From IMG/VR virus record IMGVR_UViG_2681813225_000019: a DNA stretch of 12,878 nucleotides. One strand, given 5' to 3'. The notes below the pieces were generated by a model. That model did no database searches, had not been told where the DNA came from, and saw nothing but the letters and a program-made list of their open reading frames with translations. Every line of letters starts with the position of its first letter. Within the stretch, counting starts at the first letter, position 1. The stretch is from a virus (taxonomy: Duplodnaviria > Heunggongvirae > Uroviricota > Caudoviricetes). Position numbers and translations under genes: made by a program. Of the stretch, positions 12-12,878 are shown piece after piece.

Positions 12-1466
12 TTGGATGCACTACCCCATATTGAAGGGGCGAGCAAACAAAGTGATTTTGTCCAGGCGGGTTATCAGTATGGTTTTAATAATTTATTGAC
101 GCTGTATGGTGGCTCGATGGTCGCGAATAATTATTACGCGTTCACTTTGGGGACTGGCTGGAATACACGCATTGGTGCCATTTCCGTCGATGCCACGAAG
201 TCGCATAGTAAACAAGACAACGGCGATGTGTTTGACGGGCAAAGTTATCAAATTGCCTACAACAAATTTGTGAGCCAAACGTCGACGCGTTTTGGTCTGG
301 CGGCCTGGCGTTATTCGTCGCGTGATTACCGGACATTTAACGATCACGTTTGGGCAAACAATAAAGATAATTATCGCCGTGATGAAAACGATGTCTATGA
401 CATTGCCGATTATTACCAGAACGATTTTGGCCGTAAAAATAGCTTTTCTGCCAATATGAGCCAGTCATTGCCAGAAGGCTGGGGGTCTTTGTCCTTAAGT
501 ACTTTATGGCGTGATTACTGGGGGCGCGGTGGCAGTAGTAAAGATTATCAACGGAGTTATTCCAATAACTGGCGGCGGATAAGCTATACCCTCGCGGCAA
601 GCCAGGCGTATGACGAGAATCATCATGAAGAGAAACATTTTAATATTTTTATATCGATTCCCTTTGATTGGGGTGATGACGTTTCGACGCCTCGTCGGCA
701 AATATATATGTCTAACTCAACGACGTTTGATGATCAGGGGTTTGCCTCAAATAATACGGGATTATCAGGAACCGTTGGAAGCCGGGATCAGTTTAACTAT
801 GGGGTCAACCTGAGTTATCAGCATCAGGGAAATGAAACGACAGCTGGGGCGAATTTGACCTGGAACGCGCCGGTTGCGACAGTGAATGGCAGTTATAGTC
901 AGTCGAGTACTTATCGACAGGCTGGAGCCAGTGTTTCAGGGGGCATTGTCGCCTGGTCGGGTGGCGTTAATCTGGCGAACCGTCTTTCCGAAACGTTTGC
1001 TGTGATGAATGCGCCAGGAATTAAAGATGCTTATGTCAATGGGCAAAAATATCGCACAACAAACCGTAATGGAGTGGTGATATACGACGGAATGACACCT
1101 TATCGGGAAAATCACCTGATGCTGGATGTGTCGCAAAGCGATAGCGAAGCAGAATTACGTGGCAACCGGAAAATTGCCGCCCCTTATCGCGGCGCGGTTG
1201 TACTGGTTAATTTTGATACCGATCAGCGCAAGCCCTGGTTTATTAAAGCGTTAAGAGCGGATGGTCAACCATTAATGTTTGGTTATGAAGTCAATGATAT
1301 CCATGGTCATAATATTGGCGTTGTCGGCCAGGGAAGCCAGTTATTTATTCGCACCAATGAAGTACCGCCATCGGTTAATGTGGCAATTGATAAGCAACAA
1401 GGACTTTCATGCACAATCACCTTCGGTAAAGAGATTGATGAAAGTAGAAATTATATTTGCCAGTAA
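12..1466 (+). CDS. yehB: Fimbrial outer-membrane usher protein, C-terminal ~484 codons (chaperone-usher pathway); gene body starts upstream of the window
   Basis: Long ORF with usher-like C-terminus (Gly/Ser/Asn/Tyr-rich beta-barrel-type composition, ending ...GKEIDESRNYICQ). It is directly followed by a fimbrial adhesin-like gene and sits next to rcnB/rcnA/rcnR, as in the yehABCD-rcn neighbourhood of E. coli K-12 (gene order from memory). In-frame TAA at 9-11 just upstream of the first possible start (TTG at 12). Confidence 0.8.
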   Translation: MDALPHIEGASKQSDFVQAGYQYGFNNLLTLYGGSMVANNYYAFTLGTGWNTRIGAISVDATKSHSKQDNGDVFDGQSYQIAYNKFVSQTSTRFGLAAWRYSSRDYRTFNDHVWANNKDNYRRDENDVYDIADYYQNDFGRKNSFSANMSQSLPEGWGSLSLSTLWRDYWGRGGSSKDYQRSYSNNWRRISYTLAASQAYDENHHEEKHFNIFISIPFDWGDDVSTPRRQIYMSNSTTFDDQGFASNNTGLSGTVGSRDQFNYGVNLSYQHQGNETTAGANLTWNAPVATVNGSYSQSSTYRQAGASVSGGIVAWSGGVNLANRLSETFAVMNAPGIKDAYVNGQKYRTTNRNGVVIYDGMTPYRENHLMLDVSQSDSEAELRGNRKIAAPYRGAVVLVNFDTDQRKPWFIKALRADGQPLMFGYEVNDIHGHNIGVVGQGSQLFIRTNEVPPSVNVAIDKQQGLSCTITFGKEIDESRNYICQ

Positions 1467-1481
1467 TAGTCAGGTGGTTCT

Positions 1482-2516
1482 ATGGAAATTCGCATAATGC
1501 TATTTATATTAATGATGATGGTTATGCCTGTGAGCTATGCGGCATGTTATAGTGAGTTATCTGTTCAGCACAATTTGGTTGTTCAGGGGGATTTTGCACT
1601 TACTCAAACACAAATAGCGACATATGAGCATAATTTTAATGATTCGTCATGCGTGAGTACAAATACTATCACCACTATGAGTTCGTCGGATATTATTGTT
1701 GGACTTTATAACGATACCATAAAATTAAATTTACATTTTGAATGGACCAATAAAAACAACATCACGTTGTCAAATAATCAGACCAGTTTCACCAGTGGTT
1801 ATTCAGTTACGGTGACACCTGCGGCCAGTAATGCAAAAGTGAATGTTTCTGCGGGGGGCGGCGGTTCAGTGATGATTAATGGTGTTGCGACATTATCCAG
1901 TGCTTCATCATCGACACGCGGGAGTGCCGCGGTACAATTTCTACTGTGTTTATTAGGTGGCAAGTCATGGGATGCATGTGTAAATAGCTACAGAAATGCA
2001 TTGGCACAAAATGCAGGTGTCTATTCCTTTAATCTGACATTGTCATACAACCCGATAACCACAACCTGCAAACCGGACGATTTATTAATTACTTTAGACA
2101 GTATTCCCGTTTCACAATTACCAGCCACAGGTAACAAAGCAACAATTAATAGTAAACAAGGGGATATTATTCTGCGTTGTAAAAATTTATTAGGTCAACA
2201 AAATCAAACATCACGGAAAATGCAGGTGTATTTATCAAGTTCTGATTTGTTAGCCGGCAGTAACACGATCCTGAAAGGTGCAGGAAATAATGGAGTCGGA
2301 TTTATGCTTGAAAGCAATGGTTCTCCAGTCACATTTTTAAATATCACTGATAACAGCAAAGGATACACAAATTTAAAAGAAATTGCGGCAAAGTCAAAAC
2401 TTACAGATACAACGGTTTCAATTCCGATAACTGCCAGTTACTACGTCTACGATACAAACAAAGTTAAATCTGGCGCACTGGAGGCAACCGCATTAATCAA
2501 CGTGAAATACGACTAA
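1482..2516 (+). CDS. yehA: Fimbrial adhesin-like / fimbrial subunit protein with N-terminal signal peptide (344 aa)
   Basis: ATG at 1482 preceded by AGGTGG; hydrophobic signal-like N-terminus (MEIRIMLFILMMMVMPVSYAA); Ser/Thr/Asn-rich; position immediately downstream of the usher and convergent with rcnB. Symbol assigned from synteny, from memory. Confidence 0.8.
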   Translation: MEIRIMLFILMMMVMPVSYAACYSELSVQHNLVVQGDFALTQTQIATYEHNFNDSSCVSTNTITTMSSSDIIVGLYNDTIKLNLHFEWTNKNNITLSNNQTSFTSGYSVTVTPAASNAKVNVSAGGGGSVMINGVATLSSASSSTRGSAAVQFLLCLLGGKSWDACVNSYRNALAQNAGVYSFNLTLSYNPITTTCKPDDLLITLDSIPVSQLPATGNKATINSKQGDIILRCKNLLGQQNQTSRKMQVYLSSSDLLAGSNTILKGAGNNGVGFMLESNGSPVTFLNITDNSKGYTNLKEIAAKSKLTDTTVSIPITASYYVYDTNKVKSGALEATALINVKYD

Positions 2517-2572
2517 TAACAAGCAAGACGAGCAAGTGGCTAATAATAAAAAATAACAAGGTGTCTGCATTT

Positions 2573-2599
2573 CCCCCTCATGATGAGGGGGCTTTTTTT
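2573..2599. terminator. Rho-independent terminator between the convergent yehA-like and rcnB genes
   Basis: Inverted repeat CCCCCTCA (2573-2580) / TGAGGGGG (2584-2591) followed by a T7 run (2593-2599); the T-run overlaps the rcnB stop codon on the opposite strand. Confidence 0.55.
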
Positions 2600-2936
2600 A
2601 GCGATGATAAAAAATCTCACCGTCGTAGGCTTTAATGATTTTACCGTCGGTGTCGCTGATCAACACGTACGCGCCACCCATATAGGTCCAGTGCGTCCCG
2701 GCATCAGGCGCGGGCAGGTTACGTAACTGCCACTGCTTAATGTTGTACTCATCGGTGCGGTACATCTCTGGGACGGTATCACCTGGTTTGAAATGCTTAA
2801 AGTCAGCAATGAAACTACTTAACTCATACTTAGAAATTCCCGAGGTATTGGTCGAACCCGCGGTGGCTGGTGCGGCCCAGGCGGCACTGGTAACCAGCAA
2901 AAGCACACCCAGCAACATCTTATTTTTAATGGTCAT
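2598..2936 (-). CDS. rcnB: Periplasmic nickel/cobalt homeostasis protein RcnB (YohN), 112 aa
   Basis: Minus-strand ORF; chosen start is the ATG at 2936 (MTIKNKMLLGVLLLVTSAAWA signal peptide), preceded by GGAGAG, not the 187-aa upstream extension in the ORF track. Sequence recognised as RcnB/YohN; lies downstream of rcnA. Confidence 0.88.
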   Translation of the reverse strand: MTIKNKMLLGVLLLVTSAAWAAPATAGSTNTSGISKYELSSFIADFKHFKPGDTVPEMYRTDEYNIKQWQLRNLPAPDAGTHWTYMGGAYVLISDTDGKIIKAYDGEIFYHR

Positions 2937-3157
2937 AAACTCTCCACTTTGGGGATCTGTAATATCAGTCGCATATCTTTCCTGCCATACAATATAACTG
3001 ACAAGCGATATTTTGTTAGTGATCCCATGATTTCGTAAAAAGTGTAAATGAAAGGATGCCCTAAAAGCATCCTTAGCGAGCAGAGGGTCAGCGGAAATAG
3101 CTGATTTAAGAATCATCCTGGGCTGAAGATAACATGCAAGCCTAAAGGATTGAGTTA

Positions 3158-4003
3158 TCACATTATGCCCATGAAGCCATGTACGCCCATATACACACCG
3201 ACTAAGCCAATCAACAGACTGGAAAAATAGGGGGCGCGTTTAGCGAGAGTGTTAAATCCGCTCCAGCGTTTTGCGACCTGCTGAACGCTGATTGCTGCGC
3301 CAACGCCTACGGTGACAAGCGTTAACGCCAGGCCAATGCTGAAACTGACGACCAGTGTTGCGCCCAGTGTCAGGGCTTTCAACTGAATGCATATCAATAG
3401 CACGGTAATTGCTGCCGGGCAGGGGATAAGGCCACCGGTTAAGCCAAATAACAAAATTTGCCAGTTGGTGACCTCTCTACCATCAAAGCGTCGTTTAATG
3501 TCATTGGCATGGGCTCGTGCATGGGCATCCTGATACTCGCCATGTTCGTGATGGTGATGATGTCCATGGTCGTGGTGATGTTCGTGGTCTTGATGATGTT
3601 CGTGATCGTGATGATGGTGATGATGCTCATAATCATACTCGTGCATATTCTCCAGCCAGTTGCGTTCGCCGCGCCAGGTACGCCAGAACATCCAGAACGC
3701 GGTGCCAATAATGATCACTGCGGAAATCAGCTGGAGCCACGGTTCTGCTGATTGAGCAGTAAAGCGCTTGCTGATCACCATCCCGCCAAAGGCAATTAAC
3801 CAGACCACTGCGGTATGCGAAATAGTTGCTGCCAGTCCGAGCATTACCGCTTGTTTAATGGTGCCTTTGATGGCGATGATAAACGCCGCCATCATCGTTT
3901 TTGAGTGCCCTGGTTCCAGGCCATGAAGCGCACCAAGTAAGATGGCGCTGGGGATGAAGAACCAGGCGTTTCCTTGCTGAAGAAGAGTTGTAAATTCGGT
4001 CAT
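3158..4003 (-). CDS. rcnA: Nickel/cobalt efflux transporter RcnA with histidine-rich cytoplasmic loop (281 aa)
   Basis: Membrane protein with an internal His-rich stretch (EHHHHHHDHEHHQDHEHHHDHGHHHHHEH) encoded by repetitive CAT/CAC-rich DNA around 3530-3650; divergent from rcnR with RcnR operator motifs in between. Confidence 0.92.
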   Translation of the reverse strand: MTEFTTLLQQGNAWFFIPSAILLGALHGLEPGHSKTMMAAFIIAIKGTIKQAVMLGLAATISHTAVVWLIAFGGMVISKRFTAQSAEPWLQLISAVIIIGTAFWMFWRTWRGERNWLENMHEYDYEHHHHHHDHEHHQDHEHHHDHGHHHHHEHGEYQDAHARAHANDIKRRFDGREVTNWQILLFGLTGGLIPCPAAITVLLICIQLKALTLGATLVVSFSIGLALTLVTVGVGAAISVQQVAKRWSGFNTLAKRAPYFSSLLIGLVGVYMGVHGFMGIM

Positions 4004-4040
4004 GATAATAATTCTTAGTATTAATTCGGCAATCTGATTC

Positions 4041-4075
4041 TACTCCCCCCCAGTACCTGATACTACACCCCAGTA
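4041..4075. promoter_or_regulatory. Two RcnR operator sites in the rcnA-rcnR divergent promoter region
   Basis: TACTCCCCCCCAGTA (4041-4055) and TACTACACCCCAGTA (4061-4075). On the opposite strand these read TACT-G(n)-AGTA, the published RcnR recognition pattern (TACT-G6-N-AGTA). Confidence 0.7.
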
Positions 4076-4123
4076 GATTAATAGTGCTATGATTTTTCAT
4101 ATTCTTGTTAACCAGGTGTTGCC

Positions 4124-4396
4124 ATGTCTCATACAATCCGTGATAAACAGAAACTGAAAGCGCGTGCCAGTAAGATTCAGGGCCAGGTCGTGGCGCTCAA
4201 GAAAATGCTCGACGAGCCGCACGAATGCGCTGCAGTTTTACAACAGATTGCTGCTATCCGTGGCGCGGTAAACGGTCTGATGCGGGAAGTGATTAAAGGT
4301 CATCTGACGGAACACATCGTTCACCAGGGGGATGAGCTAAAACGTGAAGAAGATCTGGATGTCGTTCTGAAGGTGCTGGATTCATATATCAAATAA
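4124..4396 (+). CDS. rcnR: Ni(II)/Co(II)-responsive transcriptional repressor RcnR (CsoR/RcnR family), 90 aa
   Basis: 90-aa ORF ([38 protein letters not shown]...) recognised as RcnR; divergent from rcnA. Confidence 0.92.
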
Positions 4397-4486
4397 TTTA
4401 TTAACGCGATTGTAAAACTGCCGTTTTTCCTCGTTTACAACGCGTGCGCTGGACATTACCATCCTCCTCTGCGATTTATCATCGCA

Positions 4487-4537
4487 ACCAAACGACTCGG
4501 GGTGCCCTTCTGCGTGAAGGCTGAGAAATACCCGTAT
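4487..4537 (+). promoter_or_regulatory. 5' portion of the thiM TPP riboswitch aptamer (thi-box), truncated at an island junction
   Basis: AACCAAACGACTCGGGGTGCCCTTCTGCGTGAAGGCTGAGAAATACCCGTAT matches the E. coli thiM aptamer as I remember it, including the CUGAGA thi-box core. The expected continuation (CACCTGATCTGGATAATGCCAGCG...) is absent; island-type sequence follows. Confidence 0.7.
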
Positions 4538-4666
4538 TTTCTCATTTAGTGTTTTTTGTGGTTCGGGGTTGTTCGTGGTTGTTTGGATATATATTTGATA
4601 TTAAATGGAATGTTGCGTTTTCTTGTTTGTTATTGTTCGTCGTTGTTCGTAGAGCTTCAACGAAAT

Positions 4667-4690
4667 GTGTGGTCAGTTGTGTGGTCAGTT
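4667..4690 (+). repeat. Perfect tandem direct repeat, 2 x 12 bp (GTGTGGTCAGTT), 36 bp upstream of the int start
   Basis: GTGTGGTCAGTT at 4667-4678 and again at 4679-4690. Confidence 0.6.
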
Positions 4691-4725
4691 TTTTGGGGCT
4701 GGAGGACTGAAAAGAGGATCTGATA

Positions 4726-5946
4726 GTGGGAAAAGCACTAAACAAACTGAGCGATTCGACATTAAAAAAATTGGCGGCTGTCCAGGCAGAAAAAGAGCGT
4801 TTTTACTCCGACGGGGGCGGGCTGGAGATTAAACACTCAAAAGGCGGAAAATTAACCTGGTATTTCCGGTACCGAACGGGAGGCCGTGAGGTTGCCGCAG
4901 AGCGGTTAAAGCTGGGGGCTTACCCTGAATTGTCGCTGAAAGCTGCAAGGGAAAAACGCGCACAGTGCCGGGCATGGCTGGCTGAGGGTAAAAACCCCCG
5001 TTATGAGTTGTGCGCCACAGTACAGGAAGCGCTAAAACCCGTTACGGTGAAGGAGGCGATTAACTACTGGCTGGAGGAATATGCGAAGGATAACCGCAAA
5101 GACTACATAAAGCTGGTGCAACGTATGGATAAGCACATCATTTGCCATATAGGGGCAATTCCTCTTGATAAATGCGACACAAGGCAGTGGATCGCATGTT
5201 TTGACCGTGTACGAAAAAAAGCACCAGTAGCAGCGGGGCACGTCATGCAAACCTGCAAACAGGCGCTAAAGTTCTGCCGCAGGAGACGCTACGCGTTCAG
5301 TAATGCCCTGGACGATTTGATCGTCAGCGATGTGGGTAAGAGAGCAGAAATTCGCGAGAGGGTGCACAGTAACAGCGAATTAAAGGAAATTTTACGCGCT
5401 ATTGATGGTGATGTGTTCGCGCCTTACTACAGCGCGTTAATGCGCTTGCTGATTGTGTTCGGGTGCAGAACTGCAGAGGTCAGACTTTCAGAGATCAAAG
5501 AATGGGATCTGAAAGAAATGTTGTGGACAGTGCCAAAAGAGCACAGCAAAACGAAGGTAACGATATTCAGGCCAATCCCCGATGGCATTTTGCCGTTCAT
5601 TCAGAAGCTGGTGGATCAGAACCGGCATACAGGGTTATTGCTCGGAGAACTGAAAAAAGATACCACGGTAGCGCAATATGGGCGAAATGCGCATAAGCGG
5701 CTTAACCAGGAACATTGGTCACTGCATGACTTTCGCCACACGTTTACAACGATGCTGAACGATTTAGGTGTCGATCCGCATATCGTGGAGCACATCACAG
5801 CGCATCAGATGCCCGGTCAGCAAAAAACCTATAACCATTCACGCTATTTACAGGCGAAGCGGGACGCTCTGAATCTGTGGGTTGAGCGCCTCGATGTGCT
5901 GGCTGGAAATCATGAAAATATTGTTATGCTGAAGGTGGCCAAATGA
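4726..5946 (+). CDS. int: Tyrosine-type site-specific integrase (P4-like family), 406 aa
   Basis: GTG start at 4726 with AGAGGA seven nt upstream. C-terminal catalytic signature present (LHDFRHTF gives the HxxR box; YNHSRY gives the catalytic Tyr region). N-terminus resembles P4-family integrases (LSDSTLKKL). Adjacent to the island junction. Confidence 0.93.
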   Translation: MGKALNKLSDSTLKKLAAVQAEKERFYSDGGGLEIKHSKGGKLTWYFRYRTGGREVAAERLKLGAYPELSLKAAREKRAQCRAWLAEGKNPRYELCATVQEALKPVTVKEAINYWLEEYAKDNRKDYIKLVQRMDKHIICHIGAIPLDKCDTRQWIACFDRVRKKAPVAAGHVMQTCKQALKFCRRRRYAFSNALDDLIVSDVGKRAEIRERVHSNSELKEILRAIDGDVFAPYYSALMRLLIVFGCRTAEVRLSEIKEWDLKEMLWTVPKEHSKTKVTIFRPIPDGILPFIQKLVDQNRHTGLLLGELKKDTTVAQYGRNAHKRLNQEHWSLHDFRHTFTTMLNDLGVDPHIVEHITAHQMPGQQKTYNHSRYLQAKRDALNLWVERLDVLAGNHENIVMLKVAK

Positions 5947-6716
5947 AATTACCTAAAAGACTCTATTATCCGTTACCTGAAGCGGCAGAAAAGTTAGGCT
6001 GTGCAATAAAAGATCTTTATCATTACGCATATATAGGTGCTCTTAATATTTCTGTATATATACCAAAAATTGATGCTAAAAAATTCAATTTTTCATTATG
6101 TCATTTTATCAATGGTTGTAATGAGGAAGAATTAATAAAATATCCTTTCAATGATGAATCTGCTGTTTTTGGAAGTAATTTTACAGTTGGTTTAACTGGT
6201 GACACTGAATTTTTAGATAGTGCCATTATTGGTCCTGTAGGGAATTCTATCAAATGTTATTATGTTAGCAGCTTATCAGGGTTTTATTATACTCCGGCAT
6301 ATGTTTTTGCTGATGTCGAATTTAGCATGAGACAATATATAAAATGTTCTCATCTTACGAATAAGTATGGTGATGATAATCTCATGTATGTTTTTTGTAA
6401 GGGTGGTTATGAATTTGATGTTAACTATTTGTGTGTGATGGCTAGTGATTTAGATAATATAAAAAATACGGGAGACTTCCCGAAGATAACAGAAGATAGC
6501 CCAAAAGCATCGTCAAAAAGGAATGAGGTTATTTACTCTTTAATTAAACTTATTCCAGAAATGGGTGATGTAGACCTGGACACGGAATCATTACCTAAAA
6601 TAGCAGATTTAATTGATTCTATAGCTGCATCCAGAGGGATAGAATTTCCAAAAACACATTGGCAGACATGGCAAAAGTATTTGGGGCGTGAATCTCAACA
6701 AAAACGTAAAAAGTGA
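5943..6716 (+). CDS. Hypothetical protein, 257 aa, AT-rich accessory/cargo gene of unknown function
   Basis: Uninterrupted ORF whose ATG overlaps the int stop (ATGA at 5943-5946). Visibly more AT-rich than flanking int and alpA. N-terminus (PLPEAAEKLGCAIKDLYHYAYIG) looks like a short helix-turn-helix; the remainder has no motif I recognise. Confidence 0.8.
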   Translation: MKLPKRLYYPLPEAAEKLGCAIKDLYHYAYIGALNISVYIPKIDAKKFNFSLCHFINGCNEEELIKYPFNDESAVFGSNFTVGLTGDTEFLDSAIIGPVGNSIKCYYVSSLSGFYYTPAYVFADVEFSMRQYIKCSHLTNKYGDDNLMYVFCKGGYEFDVNYLCVMASDLDNIKNTGDFPKITEDSPKASSKRNEVIYSLIKLIPEMGDVDLDTESLPKIADLIDSIAASRGIEFPKTHWQTWQKYLGRESQQKRKK

Positions 6717-6744
6717 TATCACGTGCTGGTAGTGTGATATCACA
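6713..6744. promoter_or_regulatory. Two copies of the 10-bp palindrome GTGATATCAC, 12 bp apart; candidate operator
   Basis: GTGATATCAC at 6713-6722 (overlapping the stop of the 257-aa ORF) and at 6735-6744. Confidence 0.4.
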
Positions 6745-6771
6745 CAAACGGCGTTTTACTACCGCCTAGAA

Positions 6772-6807
6772 TCGTCCTCGTTCGGCAACGTTCGAGGACG
6801 TTTTTTT
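6772..6807 (+). terminator. Terminator-like hairpin plus T7 run ending at the alpA start codon; the 3' arm carries the alpA Shine-Dalgarno
   Basis: TCGTCCTCG (6772-6780) ... CGAGGACG (6793-6800) followed by TTTTTTT (6801-6807) and ATG at 6808. GAGGA within the 3' arm is the only SD-like sequence for alpA. Confidence 0.5.
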
Positions 6808-7032
6808 ATGAATCAAAATACACAATTTCAATCACTATCAGATCGCGTAATCCGTGAGGATGAATGCCGTAAGTTAACAGGAGTGTGCCGCACTACACGC
6901 TACGAACTGGAGAAAAAAGGGAATTTCCCGTCACGCCGTAATCTGGGTGGTCGTTCAGTAGGTTGGCTGCTTTCCGAGGTTATGGAATGGGTTAAAAGCC
7001 GGGATCGTATTAATTCAGGCAAGGCAGCGTAA
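6808..7032 (+). CDS. alpA: AlpA-family phage regulatory protein / excisionase-like HTH regulator, 74 aa
   Basis: Small ORF with the AlpA-like C-terminal pattern (GGRSVGWLLSEVMEWV) and a central HTH (CRKLTGVCRTTRYELEKKGNFP); positioned between the int-proximal cargo and the replication module. Confidence 0.88.
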   Translation: MNQNTQFQSLSDRVIREDECRKLTGVCRTTRYELEKKGNFPSRRNLGGRSVGWLLSEVMEWVKSRDRINSGKAA

Positions 7033-7143
7033 AGGGGGGCATATGACACATAAAACAAAGGCGACCGCAGAGGGCCGCCAGTGGCATAACACTAAACTTG
7101 AGCATATCCAGAATACCAGGTTGTTGGCTGGTGGGCAATGCAA

Positions 7144-7320
7144 TCAGTCTGGTTCAGTTCGTTGCCATAACTGCGAAGCTCTCTCCTTTGATGAGTATTC
7201 TTTAAGGTACTTCTCAAGGGCAAAAGAACACGGCGCGAATCGTTCTGATTCATGCTCTTTCTTTCTGAGTCGTCTTTTTCGTGCAGGTGATGTTTTTTTG
7301 GTTGATTCTTCGTTGGTCAT
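7144..7320 (-). CDS. Possible small basic protein, 58 aa (below the cut-off of the supplied ORF track)
   Basis: Hand-translated minus-strand ORF, ATG at 7320 to TGA at 7146-7144: MTNEESTKKTSPARKRRLRKKEHESERFAPCSFALEKYLKEYSSKERASQLWQRTEPD. It lies 57 nt downstream of the RHH-like gene. No clear SD, so this is weakly supported. Confidence 0.3.
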   Translation of the reverse strand: MTNEESTKKTSPARKRRLRKKEHESERFAPCSFALEKYLKEYSSKERASQLWQRTEPD

Positions 7321-7377
7321 TGTGTGCGCCTGTAAAGCAATGCGCCGTAGTACCTCACACCACGGCGCTGGTGATGG

Positions 7378-7557
7378 TTACTCCTGCTCTTTGGCCTTGC
7401 GGCGCTGGCGGCGTTTGATTTCGCCTTTAACGGCAGTAACTATAAATTGCGCTTTGCTTTCACCTTCATCTAAATTTTTTTCTAAGTCTGCAACAACATC
7501 ATGCGGGAATCTGGCATTTAACTGTTGCGACTTATTATTTGTTGAACCTGTTGCCAT
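7378..7557 (-). CDS. Ribbon-helix-helix (CopG/Arc-like) small DNA-binding protein, 59 aa; candidate island repressor
   Basis: Minus-strand ORF from the internal ATG at 7557 (SD GAGAGGA upstream): MATGSTNNKSQQLNARFPHDVVADLEKNLDEGESKAQFIVTAVKGEIKRRQRRKAKEQE. The pattern fits an RHH fold (strand QLNARFP, then two helices). The 114-aa extension in the ORF track is not protein-like. Divergent from the replication operon. Confidence 0.55.
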   Translation of the reverse strand: MATGSTNNKSQQLNARFPHDVVADLEKNLDEGESKAQFIVTAVKGEIKRRQRRKAKEQE

Positions 7558-7740
7558 TACTGAATCCTCTCTAAGTTGGTGCGATTCAGTATACACAAAA
7601 AAATTCAGAGAAAAAGGCTTGAAGTGCGATTCACTTGCTGATAGGTTAAAAACAGATGGTGCGATGCACCAAATAACAACGCCCCGCAGTGCGGGAACAC
7701 ATACGGGGCGTCTAACCAACAACGTAAACTAGGAGCCGTT
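7558..7740. promoter_or_regulatory. Divergent control region between the RHH gene and the replication operon, with inverted repeats
   Basis: 9-bp inverted repeat TACTGAATC (7558-7566) / GATTCAGTA (7585-7593) spanning the RHH gene SD. GTGCGATTCA occurs at 7579-7588 and 7623-7632; TGGTGCGAT at 7577-7585 and 7657-7665. Further hairpin-like segments at about 7658-7670 and 7693-7706 were read by eye. Confidence 0.45.
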
Positions 7741-8298
7741 ATGGTTGCCGTAAATCATATACCACACCTTGTACACACACAAACGGCCTTTGTGTGGCGT
7801 TTTCTGGCCCTGAATATCGGAGAAAAAAACCAGTTGATCGCCAGTGTCGAAAATAGCTATGATTCCCGCGCACCTCATAAAACGGGTGCCGGGATTGGCG
7901 TCCTGGGCAAAACTGAAGCGCATAACACGCGCCCCGCGTGTTTTTTTGTGCCGCATAGTCACACCTTATCAATGGTGGGCTGTACGGGGGCGGAGCAATC
8001 CGCGCCGGTTTCTTCAGTGTCCGGTTACGCCAACCCTGTACAGTCCGCCACCAGCGAAATTGGCGTTTCCGGTGGCGGTTATCTTAACCACACTGAGGAG
8101 GCTGCCAACATGGCTACTATCCCTACCCTTGTACATTCTCAAACCGCCTTTCTCTGGCGCTTTATCATCTTTGGCGCGTCAGAACATCAAATCATCCACG
8201 TAACCGCCTGGACGGAACGCGAAGCGCGTAGCCGTTGCCCGTCAGGTTGTGTTGCTGTATTCGCCGCCCGTATTCGTCAGGGGGTGTGCCATGCTTAA
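7741..8298 (+). CDS. First ORF of the replication operon; 185-aa ORF made of two tandem paralogous small-protein modules (possibly two genes, with the second starting at 8110)
   Basis: ATG at 7741 with AGGAG upstream. Module 1 (...HLVHTQTAFVWRFLA...) and module 2 (MATIPTLVHSQTAFLWRFIIF..., own GAGGAGG SD at 8095-8101 and ATG at 8110) are clearly related. The module-1 equivalent of the module-2 C-terminus (VAVFAARIR) appears in a different frame (RVFLCRIV). Confidence 0.5.
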   Translation: MVAVNHIPHLVHTQTAFVWRFLALNIGEKNQLIASVENSYDSRAPHKTGAGIGVLGKTEAHNTRPACFFVPHSHTLSMVGCTGAEQSAPVSSVSGYANPVQSATSEIGVSGGGYLNHTEEAANMATIPTLVHSQTAFLWRFIIFGASEHQIIHVTAWTEREARSRCPSGCVAVFAARIRQGVCHA

Positions 8299-8476
8299 AA
8301 CCTTCCGTGTATTTGCCAGCGCTGTTAACCCACTAGGCCACACAATTGGTATCGCTCAGAATGTGAAGGCTGTTAATGTTCAGACGGCTATTGCTGCGGT
8401 GAGAAGCGAATCATCAGAATATGGCTTATCACAAGTCATTATTTCAGCAGTGTATGAATTAAAAGAGGTGCATTAA
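8291..8476 (+). CDS. Hypothetical small protein, 61 aa
   Basis: ATG at 8291 with AGGGGG six nt upstream, overlapping the previous ORF's stop; MLKTFRVFASAVNPLGHTIGIAQNVKAVNVQTAIAAVRSESSEYGLSQVIISAVYELKEVH. The longer start at 8249 is less likely. Confidence 0.55.
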   Translation: MLKTFRVFASAVNPLGHTIGIAQNVKAVNVQTAIAAVRSESSEYGLSQVIISAVYELKEVH

Positions 8477-8667
8477 TGAAGGAAATTACATTACACGAAG
8501 CCGCTGAACGTGCGCACCAGACAGAAATTATTTGCCGCCTTCTTGAGGTATACCCTAATAAATTAAATGATGGTGATATATCCGCATTAGCTGGCCTTCT
8601 GGCAAAACTGTCAGGAAGTGTTGCGCTGTGGTTAATTGATGAGAGAGCCGAACGCTATGAAAAATAA
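8476..8667 (+). CDS. Hypothetical small protein, 63 aa
   Basis: ATG at 8476 overlaps the upstream stop (TAATG); SD AAGAGGTG at 8463-8470. Confidence 0.6.
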   Translation: MKEITLHEAAERAHQTEIICRLLEVYPNKLNDGDISALAGLLAKLSGSVALWLIDERAERYEK

Positions 8668-8899
8668 TAAACTGGCGACCAGTGAATTAAGAAGCCTTGC
8701 CAACAGCGCAATATCTTTAAACAACGCAGCAAACGAAGTAATGAATATGTGGCTTCAGTCGCTGGTGAATAATGAACGCAATGAATCAACTGCAAGATTA
8801 ATATTAGCCGTTTCTGAATTACTGGATAGTTCAACCAGCAAAATAGAGAGCATATCAGAGAAGATTAACGGCTTATCAGGTCACGCTATCGGGGAATAA
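8657..8899 (+). CDS. Hypothetical small protein, about 80 aa (alternative start at 8636)
   Basis: ORF in the same coupled operon; ATG at 8657 overlaps the end of the previous gene; starts MKNNKLATSELRSLANSAISLNN.... Confidence 0.55.
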   Translation: MKNNKLATSELRSLANSAISLNNAANEVMNMWLQSLVNNERNESTARLILAVSELLDSSTSKIESISEKINGLSGHAIGE

Positions 8900-8904
8900 A
8901 AATA

Positions 8905-9204
8905 ATGAAACTTAAATATCCTGGCTTAACTGACAGCGGCAAAACTCGCACTAAATTCATGCGCGGGGATATTTACCGCGACCAGTACGGCGGCACGGTA
9001 ATGATTAAGGGCGTGGAGGAACGGCGCGTAACCTACCATCGTGAAGGCTACGAATATGATTGCGTGATGCCTGTTTATCAGTTCCGGCGTGATTTTTCTC
9101 TGGTACAGGCAGCGCCCCGCAGTAAACCAACCAGCAGGGAGAAAGCACGCGCCAATATTCAGGAAATAAAAAAGATGCTTAACGTATTCAGGGGTAAGAA
9201 ATGA
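8905..9204 (+). CDS. Hypothetical protein, 99 aa
   Basis: ATG at 8905 following the upstream stop at 8897-8899; its stop overlaps the start of the replication gene (ATGA at 9201-9204). Confidence 0.65.
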   Translation: MKLKYPGLTDSGKTRTKFMRGDIYRDQYGGTVMIKGVEERRVTYHREGYEYDCVMPVYQFRRDFSLVQAAPRSKPTSREKARANIQEIKKMLNVFRGKK

Positions 9205-11333
9205 AACTGGCACCGAACGTAAAAAAACAGCCACGCGGAATAAAACACAAAGACACAGAGGTAATTATTTTCGCGGGTAGTGATGCCTGGTCGCACGCGA
9301 AACAATGGCAGGAGCAGGATGGCCCCGCATCCGGCGATAATGTTCCGCCTGTGTGGCTTGGGCCAAATCAGCTTGCCGAACTTGATGCGCTGAAAATTGT
9401 TCCGGATGGAAAAAAACGCGTAAGGCTGTACCAGGCCGGAGAACTGGATTTGGTGGAGACCAAAAAGATTGGTCAGAAGCTGGCGGCGGCAGATATTCAG
9501 GACGCAAATTTTTACCCCGAAGGAATGCACGGTCAGAAGGTGGAGAACTGGCGCGAATATCTGGCCCGTGAGCGGCAGAATCTTTCTGATGGTCTGGTTA
9601 TTGAGTTTCCGGTAAAGAAAAAAGATACCGGAAGCCATAGCGATGACGAATTAAAGCCACGCGTTGAAAGTCGCGCCGATGGTGTTTTCTGGGTAACGCC
9701 CAAAGTGGATAAGCAGTCAGGCGAAATTATCCGGCCTGAGACGTGGTTATGTTCTCCGCTTGAACTACTGGGAACGGGGACGATCGGTAAAGAGCATTAC
9801 CGCGTGATGCGCTGGAAAAAAACCGCAAACCATAAAGTCATCACAATGGCGATCCCGTGTGGTGGTATCGGCGACCGTGACGGCTGGCGGTTACTTAAAG
9901 ATCACGGGCTGAACGTGACAACCAACGGCAAATACAGGGCAATCCTGGCGGACTGGATGCAGTTAAGCGGAAGCCATGAGGAATGGCAGTTAAGCACAAC
10001 AACGGGCTGGCATTTTGGCGCGTACATCATGCCGGACGGTTCGATCATTGGTGAATCTGAAAAACCGATCCTGTTTACCGGAAAAAGCGCCGCGATTAAC
10101 GGTTATTCCGTGGCGGGCACGGCGGATGGCTGGCGCGACAGCGTGGCGCGGCTGGCTGGCGGTAATGCCTCAATGATACTGGGTGTGGCAACGTCACTGG
10201 CAGCGCCTTTAATTGGCCTTGTGGGTGCTGACGGCTTCGGGGTGCATCTTTTCGAACAGTCATCGGCAGGTAAGACCACCACGCAGAACATCGCATCAAG
10301 TTTATGGGGAGAGCCGGACGCGCAGCGGCTGACCTGGTACGGCACGGCGTTAGGTATTGCCAATGAGGCCGAGGCCCATAATGACGGGCTTTTACCACTG
10401 GATGAGATAGGCCAGGCCGGAAATGCGCGGGAAGTGTCAACGTCTGCTTATACGCTGTTTAACGGTTCAGGGAAATTGCAGGGGGCGAAGGATGGCGGCA
10501 ACAGGGAGATCAAACACTGGCGAACGGTGGCAATCAGCACCGGAGAAATGGACGTTGAGACATTCCTCAAAAGTGAGGGGATAAAAGTTAAGGCGGGGCA
10601 GCTTGTCCGACTGCTTAACGTTCCGATGGAAAAAGCCACGAAATTTCACGAATACAGCAACGGTAAGGAACATGCTGACGCGTTAAAGGATGCCTGGACA
10701 GCAAATCACGGGGCGGCGGGTCGTGAGTGGGTTAAATGGCTGGCAGGCCACCAGCAGGAGGCAAAGGACACGGTAAGGGAATGCCGCGAACGGTGGCGCA
10801 ACCTGATACCGGAGAGTTACGGCGAGCAGGTCCACCGCGTGGGTGAACGTTTCGCCATACTGGAGGCCGCGCTTGTGCTTTCCGGTCATGTAACTGGCTG
10901 GGTCGTGCAGGAATGCCGCGACGCGATACAGCATAACTTTAATGCCTGGGTGAAGGAGTTCGGCACAGGTAACAGGGAATTTAAACAGATGGTTGAACAG
11001 GCTGAGGCGTTTTTGTCGTCGTTTGGGTTTAGCCGCTACCTTCCGTACCCCAATACAGATGAGCGTGATTTACCGATTAAAGAGCTTGCCGGATACAGAA
11101 AAGGGAGCATTCGCAACGAAGATGACGAGATGCGCTATTACACGTTCCCGCACGTGTTTGAGAGTGAGATAGCGAAGGGATTTAATCCGGCGCATTTTGC
11201 GCGTGCCCTGGATGCTGCCGGAATGCTGGAGAAGGGAAGCGATCGCCGATACAAAAAAAAGGCGCTGGGCAAGATTGGGGGTAAGCAGCATGTTTTTTAC
11301 GTGCTGATGTTCCAGCCTGATGATGAAGATTAA
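9201..11333 (+). CDS. Island replication protein, 710 aa: primase/helicase-like with a central P-loop NTPase (DUF927-type, family assignment from memory)
   Basis: Large ORF translationally coupled to upstream genes. Walker A-like SSAGKTT and Walker B-like LLPLDEIG present. Immediately followed by an iteron array, the arrangement seen in satellite/PICI replication modules. Confidence 0.88.
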   Translation: MKLAPNVKKQPRGIKHKDTEVIIFAGSDAWSHAKQWQEQDGPASGDNVPPVWLGPNQLAELDALKIVPDGKKRVRLYQAGELDLVETKKIGQKLAAADIQDANFYPEGMHGQKVENWREYLARERQNLSDGLVIEFPVKKKDTGSHSDDELKPRVESRADGVFWVTPKVDKQSGEIIRPETWLCSPLELLGTGTIGKEHYRVMRWKKTANHKVITMAIPCGGIGDRDGWRLLKDHGLNVTTNGKYRAILADWMQLSGSHEEWQLSTTTGWHFGAYIMPDGSIIGESEKPILFTGKSAAINGYSVAGTADGWRDSVARLAGGNASMILGVATSLAAPLIGLVGADGFGVHLFEQSSAGKTTTQNIASSLWGEPDAQRLTWYGTALGIANEAEAHNDGLLPLDEIGQAGNAREVSTSAYTLFNGSGKLQGAKDGGNREIKHWRTVAISTGEMDVETFLKSEGIKVKAGQLVRLLNVPMEKATKFHEYSNGKEHADALKDAWTANHGAAGREWVKWLAGHQQEAKDTVRECRERWRNLIPESYGEQVHRVGERFAILEAALVLSGHVTGWVVQECRDAIQHNFNAWVKEFGTGNREFKQMVEQAEAFLSSFGFSRYLPYPNTDERDLPIKELAGYRKGSIRNEDDEMRYYTFPHVFESEIAKGFNPAHFARALDAAGMLEKGSDRRYKKKALGKIGGKQHVFYVLMFQPDDED

Positions 11334-11355
11334 TCCCCTGTGTGAGGAAAAAAAT

Positions 11356-11671
11356 TGCGGGTTATGCGGGTTATCCTGTGTATAAGTGTATTAAGCGCAT
11401 GAATATAAAGGAAATCAATAACCCGCACGTAACCCGCAAAAGGGCATTTATAACCCGCAAAAGCACGATTATAACCCGCAGGCGAATAACTGAAGTAACA
11501 CCGGACAGTCATGCGTAACCCGCAGAAAAAACCCCGTTTGCGGGTTATTTTGAGCATTTTGCGGGTTATGTGGTGAGCAAATAATAAACAGGGCGTTTTG
11601 CAACATGCTGATATAAAAGGATAAAAAATGGTTAGCACGCTAAGATAACCCAATAACCCGCATAACCCGCA
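11356..11671. repeat. Iteron array; putative origin of replication of the island
   Basis: TAACCCGCA at 11419, 11430, 11451, 11472, 11516, 11654 and 11663; inverted copy TGCGGGTTA at 11356, 11365, 11539 and 11560. Spacings of 9, 11, 21, 21 and 21 bp approximate helical-turn multiples. An AT-rich tract (ATATATATATAAATT, about 11681-11695) follows. Confidence 0.75.
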
Positions 11672-11705
11672 CATGTTTCTATATATATATAAATTGAGGT
11701 GGCAA

Positions 11706-11957
11706 ATGACCAGAACACGCAGAGACAGAACAGAGCCGAAATATAAAGCGTTAGATATAACAGAGCTGGCCTTAAAGGTGGCAATCAGAACGATAGACCG
11801 ACATGTAGGGGAAGGATACGCGAAGGAACATCCCGACCTGATAAGCGCATTCATGACCACAGCAGCGGCAAACTTTGCCACGTTGACAGAACGGGAGATT
11901 GCCGAAGCGGAACAGGTAACAACCATCAACGTTAAAACCGGAGAGCAGACAGCATGA
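11706..11957 (+). CDS. Hypothetical protein, 83 aa (start chosen at the internal ATG with GAGGTGG SD)
   Basis: ATG at 11706 preceded by GAGGTGG (11694-11700); stop overlaps the start of the SSB-like gene (ATGA at 11954-11957). The longer start at 11673 lies in the AT-rich origin tract. Confidence 0.6.
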   Translation: MTRTRRDRTEPKYKALDITELALKVAIRTIDRHVGEGYAKEHPDLISAFMTTAAANFATLTEREIAEAEQVTTINVKTGEQTA

Positions 11958-12364
11958 CAGCACAGATAGCGGCTTACGGGCGGCTGGTGGACGACCCGCA
12001 GGTAAAACAGACCAGCAAGGGAACACCGATGACGCTGGCGCGTATGGCGGTATCGCTGCCATGCAGCCAGGCACATGACGGACAGGCGACGTTATGGTTA
12101 TCGGTTATCGCATTTGGCAAACAGGCCGATTTCCTGGCTAAACATCAAAAAGGCGATGTTGCCAGCGTATCCGGCACGATGCAGGTAAGCCAGTGGACCG
12201 GACAGAACGGGGAAACGCGGCGGGGGTATCAGGTTATTGCAGACAGCGTAATCAGTGCCCGTGCGGCACGTCCTGGCGGGAACAGACGCAAGACCACAGG
12301 CACACAGGGTAATCAGCCACCAGCGGAAGGCGATGACCCTTACGGTGATGATATTCCGTTCTGA
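11954..12364 (+). CDS. ssb: Single-stranded DNA-binding protein-like (OB fold, acidic C-terminal tail), 136 aa
   Basis: SSB-like layout: IAAYGRLVDDPQVKQTSKG, W...V.AFGKQADFLAKHQKGDVASVSGTMQVSQWTGQNGETRRGYQVIAD, Gly/Pro/Gln-rich linker and C-terminal DDIPF, the SSB protein-interaction tip. Confidence 0.85.
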   Translation: MTAQIAAYGRLVDDPQVKQTSKGTPMTLARMAVSLPCSQAHDGQATLWLSVIAFGKQADFLAKHQKGDVASVSGTMQVSQWTGQNGETRRGYQVIADSVISARAARPGGNRRKTTGTQGNQPPAEGDDPYGDDIPF

Positions 12365-12376
12365 GGGGTGGGGACG

Positions 12377-12649
12377 ATGGTACATGACCGCATAGCGGAA
12401 GAACTGGAGGCGAAAGGCTTTTACCGGAGAGCGTCGGCGCGATGGGGTGAAGTCATGCAACTGGTGGAGACAGACAAGGAACGGCATCACATCACGATGC
12501 GACGGCTGGAATGTTCCAGGAAGGCACAGAGGCCACCGGAGCCGCCGGATAATTACGGAGACCTGAAAAAGGCGGTCGATCGCACTTATGCCGAAATGGG
12601 TATGGATGGTGCTGGTGATGAAATATGGCGAAATTACCAGGACAGATAA
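12377..12649 (+). CDS. PerC-family transcriptional regulator-like protein, about 90 aa (alternative GTG start at 12368)
   Basis: MVHDRIAEELEAKGFYRRASARWGEVM... resembles the N-terminal region of PerC/Pch-type regulators, as recalled from memory. ATG at 12377 preceded by GAGGGGTGGGGA. Confidence 0.7.
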   Translation: MVHDRIAEELEAKGFYRRASARWGEVMQLVETDKERHHITMRRLECSRKAQRPPEPPDNYGDLKKAVDRTYAEMGMDGAGDEIWRNYQDR

Positions 12650-12655
12650 TCACAC

Positions 12656-12678
12656 AGCCGGAGCAATCCGGCTTTTTG
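12656..12678 (+). terminator. Rho-independent terminator downstream of the perC-like gene
   Basis: AGCCGG (12656-12661), loop AGCAAT, CCGGCT (12668-12673), then TTTTT (12674-12678). Confidence 0.65.
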
Positions 12679-12878
12679 TCATGTTTTGTAAATTATTTGT
12701 TCGTGGTTGTTCCACGTTGTTCACTGAGCGGATCGGCATATTTTACCCGAACTGAATCATGATTATTCTCGCCCGTGGTGCCAGGACGCTGGGGCCACTT
12801 TCCCGCCTGTTAATGTTCTCGCCAATATTCATTACCAGGCGGGAAAACGAACGGTGCGATTGCTGATTTCCTTATGAA

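Follow-up and report, generated by a model that had tools for sequence, protein, structure and literature searches.

We analyzed a stretch of 12,878 nucleotides of viral DNA (Caudoviricetes; IMG/VR record IMGVR_UViG_2681813225_000019), hereafter called the window, in which Escherichia coli DNA gives way to a mobile element within the thiamine pyrophosphate (TPP) riboswitch of the thiamine gene thiM. To the left, the window holds the terminal part of the yeh fimbrial operon, followed by rcnB and rcnA on the minus strand and by rcnR, which is the gene named "frmR" in a 2018 table of phage-inducible chromosomal islands (PICIs). From position 4538 onward it belongs to a satellite of the PICI family. 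In our reading, to which we assign a probability of roughly 0.85, window positions 4524-4537 are the left attachment site (attL) of this satellite, which by homology is capsid-forming, and its integration splits the thiM riboswitch without repair of the sensor. The features at the junction are as follows (P, helix; J, joining region).

4124 to 4396, plus strand: rcnR, a nickel- and cobalt-responsive repressor and the last host gene ahead of the thiM leader (from the list of open reading frames (ORFs), and from PGAP annotation of identical DNA in K-12 and in carriers).
4488 to 4537, plus strand: orphaned 5' half of the thiM TPP aptamer, comprising the P1 5' strand, P2, the P3 hairpin, the CUGAGA junction and the P2 3' strand (the pyrimidine-sensor arm); 100% identical to positions 2889-2938 of the K-12 riboswitch locus (L001), with helices taken from the Rfam alignment of the intact aptamer.
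4524 to 4537, no strand assigned: attL copy of the 14-bp core AGAAATACCCGTAT, spanning J3/2, the P2 3' strand and the first 3 nt of J2/4; it is a direct repeat in complete islands and is identical to the published core of the island EcCI224.

Junctions within the thiM aptamer

Over positions 4100-4537 the window matches E. coli K-12 W3110, along with thousands of further E. coli genomes, at 100% identity, and this identity ends at 4537 (…CTGAGAAATACCCGTAT). Across the break, K-12 reads …GGGGTGCCCTTCTGCGTGAAGGCTGAGAAATACCCGTAT followed by CACCTGATCTGGATAATGCCAGCG… (in short form, ACCCGTAT followed by CACCTGATCTGGATAATGCCAGCG), whereas the window reads …ACCCGTAT followed by TTTCTCATTTAGTG…. The annotated K-12 TPP riboswitch in front of thiM is equivalent to window positions 4488-4584. 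A preliminary examination of the letters alone (the sequence-only reading) had matched the window up to about 4537 to the 5' half of the thiM aptamer and had proposed that the 3' half is replaced by island DNA. Both proposals hold: K-12 identity stops exactly at 4537, and the pyrophosphate-sensor half and the P1 3' strand are gone from the junction. The junction strings that it gave are correct with respect to both K-12 and the window. The concern that some lineage might natively read CCCGTATTTTCTC was not borne out, because island-free rcnR-thiM leaders carry CCCGTATCACCTG at this place.

Covariance-model searches are consistent with this division. The intact K-12 aptamer, as a positive control, scores 71.2 bits against Rfam model RF00059, for which the curated gathering score of 54.3 bits served as our threshold for membership among TPP aptamers. 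An Rfam scan of the window gives no TPP match at the gathering score. A permissive scan recovers a fragment at 21.0 bits (E=0.066), below the threshold, and the truly aligned part of this fragment is only the 5' part: the P1 5' strand, P2, P3 and CUGAGA.

Our reading of the far end relies on complete genomes that share the junction, among them strain 90-9280 (locus L002), O157:H7 MB41-1 (L003) and Ecol_224 (L005). A typical O157:H7 genome (L004) has a site free of an island. In all three carriers the right junction consists of AATTAGTA, the core AGAAATACCCGTAT and CACCTGATCTGG, in that order, followed by thiM; in 90-9280 the longer reading is …AATTAGTA, AGAAATACCCGTAT, CACCTGATCTGGATAATGCCAGCGTAGGGAAGTC…, again followed by thiM. 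The aptamer's missing 3' half thus stands in front of thiM at this right attachment site (attR). The 14-bp core is directly repeated at both ends in 90-9280 and Ecol_224, and in MB41-1 the left copy differs by one single-nucleotide polymorphism.

The crystal structures published in 2006 for the thiM aptamer of E. coli and for plant TPP aptamers show two sensor arms: the pyrimidine ring sits in the P2-P3 arm, and the pyrophosphate is held through Mg2+ by the P4-P5 arm, such that both are needed in one RNA. When the Rfam alignment is mapped onto the junctions, attL retains only the P1 5' strand, P2 and P3, and attR retains only P4, P5 and the P1 3' strand. Neither junction joins the two arms by a closing P1 in one RNA. 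The attR region of 90-9280 scores 35.1 bits for TPP, under the 54.3-bit threshold, and PGAP annotates the thiM riboswitch in island-free genomes, not in the three carriers. The island rebuilds the sensor at neither junction.

We also considered whether the island makes up for the missing half of the aptamer. At the island end (…ACAGGAATTAGTA or …ACAAAAATTAGTA), P3 is absent, GUAAGA stands in place of CUGAGA, and the sequence differs between variants; we rejected this candidate.

These findings bear on what the sequence-only reading had expected of the far end. A direct repeat of the core is present there, and island DNA and the aptamer 3' half precede thiM. The reading had offered two alternatives, namely that thiMD lost its native promoter and riboswitch or that it acquired a 5' region from the island; both are borne out, in that thiMD has lost the 5' half of the riboswitch and, in all likelihood, its native promoter, and is now preceded by island DNA that leaves the aptamer unrestored. 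A much closer right junction with a reconstituted aptamer would have spoken against the proposal, but the remainder of the leader lies 10.7-16.1 kb away and scores 35.1 bits.

Junction-spanning queries show how often this arrangement occurs. Among 5,426 complete E. coli genomes, attL is present in 76 (120-bp query, fully covered) and attR in 75 (301-bp query, fully covered). These counts also bear on whether the junction might be an artefact, either an assembly chimera or a chance likeness to half a thi-box. Such an origin might be entertained because the window's own genome is absent from the complete-genome collection, in which the best match to the island part has 97.7% identity over 90%. 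However, this junction is found in 76 genomes finished independently of one another, and the right junctions and direct repeats agree with it; the flank matches the K-12 leader at 100% and is homologous to it by descent, and the core recurs exactly where K-12 homology resumes at the far end. We consider an artefact vanishingly improbable. The evidence supports an integrase-mediated attachment-site junction inside the thiM TPP aptamer.

A separate observation concerns the core in MB41-1. Its left copy (L003 positions 11987-12000) reads AGAAATGCCCGTAT, and the right copy has A at the variant position. If this difference was inherited from the attachment site of the circular element (attP), and is not a later mutation, it would place strand exchange to the left of core position 7.

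Genes and family of the satellite

The window ends within the element, and its island part contains the following features.

4538 to 12878, plus strand: left 8.3 kb of the PICI-family satellite, by homology to the MB41-1 and EDL933 elements; the window ends within it.
4623 to 4692, plus strand: arm repeat block with tandem TGTGTGGTCAGT x2 at 4666-4689; a candidate arm-type integrase-binding site, duplicated in the other island arm.
4726 to 5946, plus strand: tyrosine integrase gene (int), 406 aa, GTG start, with an N-terminal arm-DNA-binding domain (Pfam Arm-DNA-bind_3, E=2e-18; Phage_integrase, E=8e-17).
6808 to 7032, plus strand: AlpA-family regulator, a PICI cycle activator that is excisionase-like (Pfam Phage_AlpA, E=3e-16).
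7870 to 8055, plus strand: isrK-like RNA (7870-7946) and C4 antisense RNA (7968-8055), both at the level of the Rfam gathering score (66.0 and 77.6 bits, respectively).
8905 to 9204, plus strand: DUF4222 gene (Pfam, E=2e-23).
9201 to 11333, plus strand: primase/replicase with DUF927 (Pfam, E=1e-48).
11954 to 12364, plus strand: single-stranded DNA-binding protein, SSB (Pfam, E=1e-16).
12368 to 12649, plus strand: PerC-family activator encoded by the satellite (Pfam, E=3e-43).

The integrase gene starts with the GTG at 4726, 189 bp past the junction, which agrees with the distance of about 190 bp estimated previously, and PGAP places the gene at the same position in the genomes that share the junction. 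In its product, PF13356 (66.7 bits, residues 8-94) and PF00589 (62.0 bits, residues 216-374) score above their cut-offs, and an HxxR box (LHDFRHT) is visible in an alignment with the EcCI224 integrase. It is identical (100%) to the MB41-1 integrase and shares 97% identity with that of EcCI224. By its domains, then, the predicted protein is a P4-type tyrosine integrase.

The arms of the island are consistent with an integrase of this type. The 70-bp arm block of the window is identical to a stretch located 63 nt before the right core in MB41-1, and stretches of 25-30 bp are common to both arms in 90-9280 and Ecol_224. The tandem TGTGTGGTCAGT x2 is present in both arms of all three complete islands, and in the window it occurs only at 4666-4689. 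Tandem repeats in both arms are the layout expected for the arm-type sites of an arm-binding integrase, and we regard the repeats as candidate sites.

The island part of the window has 97.7% identity over 90% to a 16-kb element of MB41-1, which continues into genes for capsid, protease, portal, connector, HNH, TerS and TerL proteins. It also has 95.9% identity over 61% to an element of EDL933, in which the matching module extends from window position 7126 onward. In 90-9280, a 15-kb island runs from int through a helix-turn-helix regulator (AlpA-type), Icd-like genes, primase, SSB, capsid, prohead protease, portal, connector, HNH, TerS and TerL, and approximately 700 bp of noncoding DNA separates its last gene from thiM and thiD. 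The Ecol_224 island is 10.6 kb.

Several features place these elements among PICIs. The int gene lies at one end, beside an attachment site with flanking direct repeats, in all three complete islands (189 bp from attL), and an AlpA-type regulator and a primase module extend rightward from int, all on the plus strand. No tail or lysis gene is annotated in the three complete islands, and the window covers the first 8.3 kb of its element. Capsid-forming PICIs (cf-PICIs) are described as elements of 10-18 kb with an integrase, modules for regulation and replication, and a capsid-to-terminase module of their own, but with neither tail nor lysis genes (bioRxiv 10.1101/2022.09.08.507074). The 90-9280 and MB41-1 elements show all of these characteristics, including the packaging module, which lies beyond the end of the window. 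We infer that the window's element belongs to the capsid-forming subtype, as suggested by its homology to these relatives. The site and the integrase are common to a classical PICI (EcCI224) and to cf-PICIs.

Icd-like genes are annotated in MB41-1 at the place equivalent to the RNA module of the window. Judged by sequence, the pair of isrK-like (Hfq-binding type) and C4 RNAs beside Icd-like genes is an RNA immunity module in the style of P1, P7 and P4 within a cf-PICI-type element. An Ash-family ORF (7741-8298; Pfam match) runs across the two RNAs and is perhaps not a genuine gene.

Two further island ORFs, 5943-6716 (257 aa) and 7043-7732 (229 aa), follow int and flank alpA, and neither has a match in Pfam, PADLOC or PHROGs; scans of the three Pfam-unmatched island ORFs against PADLOC and PHROGs found nothing. 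At the position of 5943-6716, 90-9280 and Ecol_224 have a different gene (DUF6387), which indicates a variable accessory slot. The noncoding right end of the satellites, 700-1,000 bp between the last gene and thiM, contains a conserved GC-rich hairpin of 11 bp, ACCGAGGGCGGAATTCCGCCTTCGGT (90-9280, L002 35046-35071; Ecol_224, L005 23260-23285). This hairpin could be a terminator or part of a packaging (cos) region.

Occupied sites in E. coli and Salmonella

The paired attL and attR coordinates define inserts of 10.7-16.1 kb, all of satellite size. The site is occupied by different satellites in approximately 1.4% of complete E. coli genomes. The carriers are diverse, with hosts that include O157:H7, enterotoxigenic E. 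coli, SMS-3-5 and ST648, and with isolates from poultry, pigs and wildlife. Typical O157:H7 (L004) has an intact annotated riboswitch, and MB41-1 and three relatives carry a satellite. Natural pairs with and without the element therefore exist within one lineage.

In O157:H7, rcnR and the thiM aptamer are separated by approximately 2.2 kb of additional DNA (L004 4296-6568; L003 9678-11950), with genes for a small outer-membrane protein and hypothetical proteins. This DNA takes the place of the leader and promoter sequence found in K-12, as far as about 10 nt ahead of P1, and leaves the aptamer intact, and the thiM promoter consequently differs between lineages.

Relatives outside E. coli were sought with both the junction and the integrase. 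Among 100,044 species-representative genomes, the attL string has 0 matches, and an integrase-based search for loci in the same genomes yielded no confirmed relative. A search of a large protein database places the integrase in a single E. coli cluster with 588 members at 99% identity, after which there is a gap to relatives at 76-68%. Five of these relatives (P0002-P0006, 68-76% identity), several of which are named Salmonella enterica by NCBI, all sit past yehB/yehA-like fimbrial genes and rcnB, that is, at a Salmonella-type rcnB locus.

The DNA upstream of int in all six loci retrieved (L006-L011) reads …GACGACTCGGGGTGCCCTTCTTTGTGAAGGCTGAGAAATACCCGTAT followed by TWTCTAAYTTAG… (also read as GGGGTGCCCTTCTTTGTGAAGGCTGAGAAATACCCGTAT followed by TWTCTAAYTTAG), and the break falls at the same nucleotide as in E. 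coli. After the break, upstream of int, all six carry a tandem TGTG[T/A]GGTCAGT repeat, which is the motif of the window's arm repeat block. The 5' half of the aptamer is identical in E. coli and Salmonella apart from the P3 loop, and a Salmonella TTTACA-17-TATGCT element upstream of the aptamer is equivalent to a promoter-like site of E. coli that is described below. An Rfam scan of two of the Salmonella junction loci (L006 and L009) gave no TPP match at E<=0.5, as expected for half an aptamer, and the identity was read directly from the sequence. A further E. coli relative of the integrase at 68% (P0007) lies beside a LysR regulator and M20 peptidases, and there is no aptamer sequence upstream of it. 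Integrases specific for the thiM aptamer thus form a clade that extends over two genera.

The Salmonella elements differ in content from those of E. coli. They exceed 11 kb and encode an additional, unrelated tyrosine recombinase (L010 17332-18312; L011 17253-18233), two ProQ-domain proteins and a D5_N/DUF5906 primase in place of DUF927. Given this difference in gene content, quite different satellites have the attachment site in common.

Predicted consequences for thiMD and comparison with known systems

In the preferred reading, the P4-type integrase recombines the 14-bp core AGAAATACCCGTAT within the aptamer (J3/2, the P2 3' strand and the start of J2/4). The promoter side and the pyrimidine-sensor arm (P1 5' strand, P2 and P3) remain beside rcnR, facing int, and the P4/P5 pyrophosphate arm, the P1 3' strand, the expression platform and thiMD come to lie 10.7-16.1 kb away, behind island DNA. 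The aptamer was presumably chosen as an invariant sequence shared across genera, as in tRNA targeting, and not for its role in regulation: the 5' half is identical in E. coli and Salmonella except for the P3 loop, so sequence invariance is the simplest account of target choice.

One feature of the host flank determines what happens to transcription.

4434 to 4462, plus strand: promoter-like TTTACA-17-TACCAT, the probable native thiM promoter and the only site in 4380-4780 to match the sigma-70 consensus strictly; after integration it lies on the side of attL, facing int.

Any thiM promoter must be upstream of the aptamer and therefore upstream of the junction, such that thiMD loses it upon integration. 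We conclude that thiMD is probably severed from its native promoter. No terminator-like site was found between the promoter match at 4434-4462 and int, and after integration the host thiM promoter could read into int.

Translation of thiM was considered by folding the leader. In the free wild-type leader, the probabilities that the Shine-Dalgarno (SD) sequence is unpaired are 0.85/0.85/0.79, and they fall to 0.00 when the aptamer helices are enforced to mimic the ligand-bound state. In the attR leader they are 0.90/0.73/0.79 for 5' ends up to approximately 170 nt upstream of the thiM start (locus positions 35480-35556), and approximately 0.4 for longer 5' extensions (locus position 35440 and beyond upstream). 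The attR leader retains the GCCAGCGUAGGGAAG strand, which pairs with the anti-SD; its SD-sequestered fold is less stable by 3.3 kcal/mol, and no ligand pocket is left to compensate. By holding the anti-SD, this anti-anti-SD strand would keep the ribosome-binding site open in the hybrid leader and abolish repression by thiamine. The folding models thus suggest a hybrid leader that is blind to TPP, with thiM translation "on" regardless of thiamine.

Several points weigh against this reading of the locus. The regulatory consequences derive solely from thermodynamic folding and consensus scans. Scans of the 330-1,000 bp of island sequence before attR revealed no convincing thiMD promoter, and terminator-like hairpins occur on the thiM strand upstream of attR in each of the three islands. 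Nevertheless, thiM and thiD are annotated as intact in all three carriers. The junction of the excised circle (attP) has no match for an exact 28-mer in IMG/VR viral contigs or for a degenerate 31-mer in JGI metagenome contigs; excision was not observed, and present mobility at the thiM site is suggested by the multiple independent occupants. The window ends inside the island, and its right junction and packaging genes are accordingly those predicted from relatives. Finally, the evidence from Salmonella consists of left junctions and not of an intact attachment site (attB).

The thiM stop and thiD start overlap by 4 nt in K-12, which implies one transcript and probably translational coupling. 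Carriers may express both genes from a weak, unrecognized promoter or by read-through, aided by the open leader, or they may be limited for thiamine.

In one version of events, an outward promoter in the right arm gives adequate, thiamine-independent expression of thiMD and the insertion is near neutral; in the circle, the same promoter would read across attP into int, and integration would amount to a promoter swap. Intact thiM and thiD in the three carriers and the varied source and serotype of the 76 occupied genomes fit this version, as does the predicted SD-open leader. The last 70 bp or so of the right arm are AT-rich, and 90-9280 has a weak TTTATG-18-TATTAT match (8/12) 23 nt ahead of the core. 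However, this match is missing from the right arms of MB41-1 and Ecol_224. A strict consensus promoter is lacking in the 700-1,000 bp upstream of thiM in the three islands, and a relaxed scan there found nothing conserved. Moreover, conservation of the end of the right arm is equally explained by binding of integrase and integration host factor in attP. We regard a compensated insertion as quite possible, at somewhat short of even odds.

Alternatively, the insertion could be costly, in that thiMD is nearly promoterless, little ThiD is made, and cells are thiamine auxotrophs or grow slowly while the satellite persists on thiamine from the gut. The native promoter is necessarily separated, the sequence before attR offers no consensus promoter and has the hairpins noted above, and the overlapping genes share one transcript. 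The HMP-P (hydroxymethylpyrimidine phosphate) kinase step of ThiD is required for de novo thiamine synthesis. Yet neither thiM nor thiD has decayed in the three carriers, a small amount of ThiD may be enough, and an SD-open leader would make the most of any read-through. A substantial cost seems unlikely, though not strongly so.

The insertion might instead serve the host as a regulatory switch, in the manner of regulated gene integrity or active lysogeny, whereby reversible excision restores thiamine control, or int is governed by thiamine status by way of the host promoter and the truncated leader. By sequence, the aptamer would be whole again after precise excision at the 14-bp core, and the host thiM promoter faces int. 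Against this, the orphaned 5' half cannot bind TPP alone because the pyrophosphate arm is gone, and heterogeneity of attP and attB was not seen in the searches of viral and metagenome contigs. Excision of PICIs is, according to the papers describing them, tied to induction of a helper phage (PMC6092414; bioRxiv 10.1101/2022.09.08.507074). We consider such a switch very improbable.

Returning to the preferred reading of a satellite attL that splits the riboswitch, its fullest form would be a clade of satellite integrases (68-99% identity) specialized on the thiM aptamer in Escherichia and Salmonella, in which each integration is a natural riboswitch knockout that leaves thiMD thiamine-blind and transcribed from the island, and int under the host thiM promoter. 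This fuller proposal is tentative, and we hold it to be doubtful as a whole. If true, and with a measurable effect on thiamine physiology or satellite maintenance in approximately 1.4% of E. coli, no mobile element would have been described before that uses and inactivates a riboswitch aptamer as attB. That the supposedly intergenic site is the ligand-binding core of one of the most thoroughly studied riboswitches has consequences of its own. The recurrent, naturally disrupted alleles, some within a single lineage (O157:H7 with and without a satellite), make it possible to ask how much a cell gains from riboswitch control of thiM. The principle behind tRNA targeting, in which an invariant structured RNA serves as a landing pad across genera, is extended to a cis-regulatory RNA and may help to explain how satellites become established in different genera. 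The split aptamer also explains why the thiM riboswitch annotation is missing in carrier strains. The finding opens no long-standing question.

The site itself is already catalogued. Table S1 of Fillol-Salom et al. 2018 (ISME J, PMC6092414) lists EcCI224 of strain Ecol_224 (CP018948.1 1961620-1972242, 10.6 kb) with core AGAAATACCCGTAT and location frmR-thiM. This island corresponds to our locus L005, and the published core is identical to the core derived here. The element in the window is another satellite of a known family at an attachment site published in 2018. That paper treats the EcCI224 site as intergenic, and in its main text and the supplements examined there is no mention of a riboswitch, thiamin or TPP in this context. 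Our literature searches on thiM, riboswitches, PICIs and integration sites turned up no description of a riboswitch as an attachment site or of an integrative element that splits an aptamer, although absence from the literature searched is not proof. As far as we found, three points had not been remarked upon: the site is the core of the thiM riboswitch, it is left unrepaired, and a related integrase clade does likewise in Salmonella.

The sequence-only reading had considered a riboswitch attachment site unusual, because integrative elements usually target tRNA or tmRNA genes. An unrepaired aptamer is indeed an unusual target, but the tRNA baseline is a weak one for this family. The same source reports eight PICI attachment sites in E. 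coli, and entries of its Table S1 such as yicC-dinD and frmR-thiM are named by flanking genes; at least some PICI attachment sites are therefore not tRNA genes. According to the cf-PICI preprint, these elements use six E. coli attB sites, four of them in common with classical PICIs (bioRxiv 10.1101/2022.09.08.507074).

Comparison with individual systems shows both likenesses and differences. EcCI224 shares with the window's element the core, the site (frmR-thiM being rcnR-thiM), the layout of AlpA, Icd-like, DUF4222 and primase genes, and an integrase at 97% identity. EcCI224 is 10.6 kb and has a protease-capsid fusion and a DUF1441 gene in place of a full packaging module; the window's element, in turn, has an EDL933-type DUF927 primase and PerC module. 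EcCIEDL933, the prototype cf-PICI (Alqurainy et al., bioRxiv 10.1101/2022.09.08.507074), has a replication and regulatory module that matches the window at 95.9% over 61% of the island part. However, the first 2.6 kb of the island, including the integrase gene, is unmatched in EDL933-type genomes, in which the common part occupies another chromosomal position.

Islands in tRNA and tmRNA genes and satellite P4 resemble the present case in having an arm-binding tyrosine integrase, a short identity core in the conserved sequence of a structured RNA, and the same target across genera. Elements of this kind normally carry a copy of the displaced gene end, and the target stays functional, as described for icd and tRNA targets (PMC10111431). 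In contrast to tRNA and tmRNA islands, the thiM-site satellites have an identity block of just 14 bp and leave the aptamer unrepaired (21.0 and 35.1 bits). In regulated gene integrity and active lysogeny, exemplified by comK, sigK and spsM and by helper-embedded PICIs (PMC10111431), a functional unit is likewise split and precise excision would restore it. In the thiM-site satellites, the split unit is a cis-regulatory RNA sensor and not a coding sequence, and use of excision by the host as a switch is without evidence.

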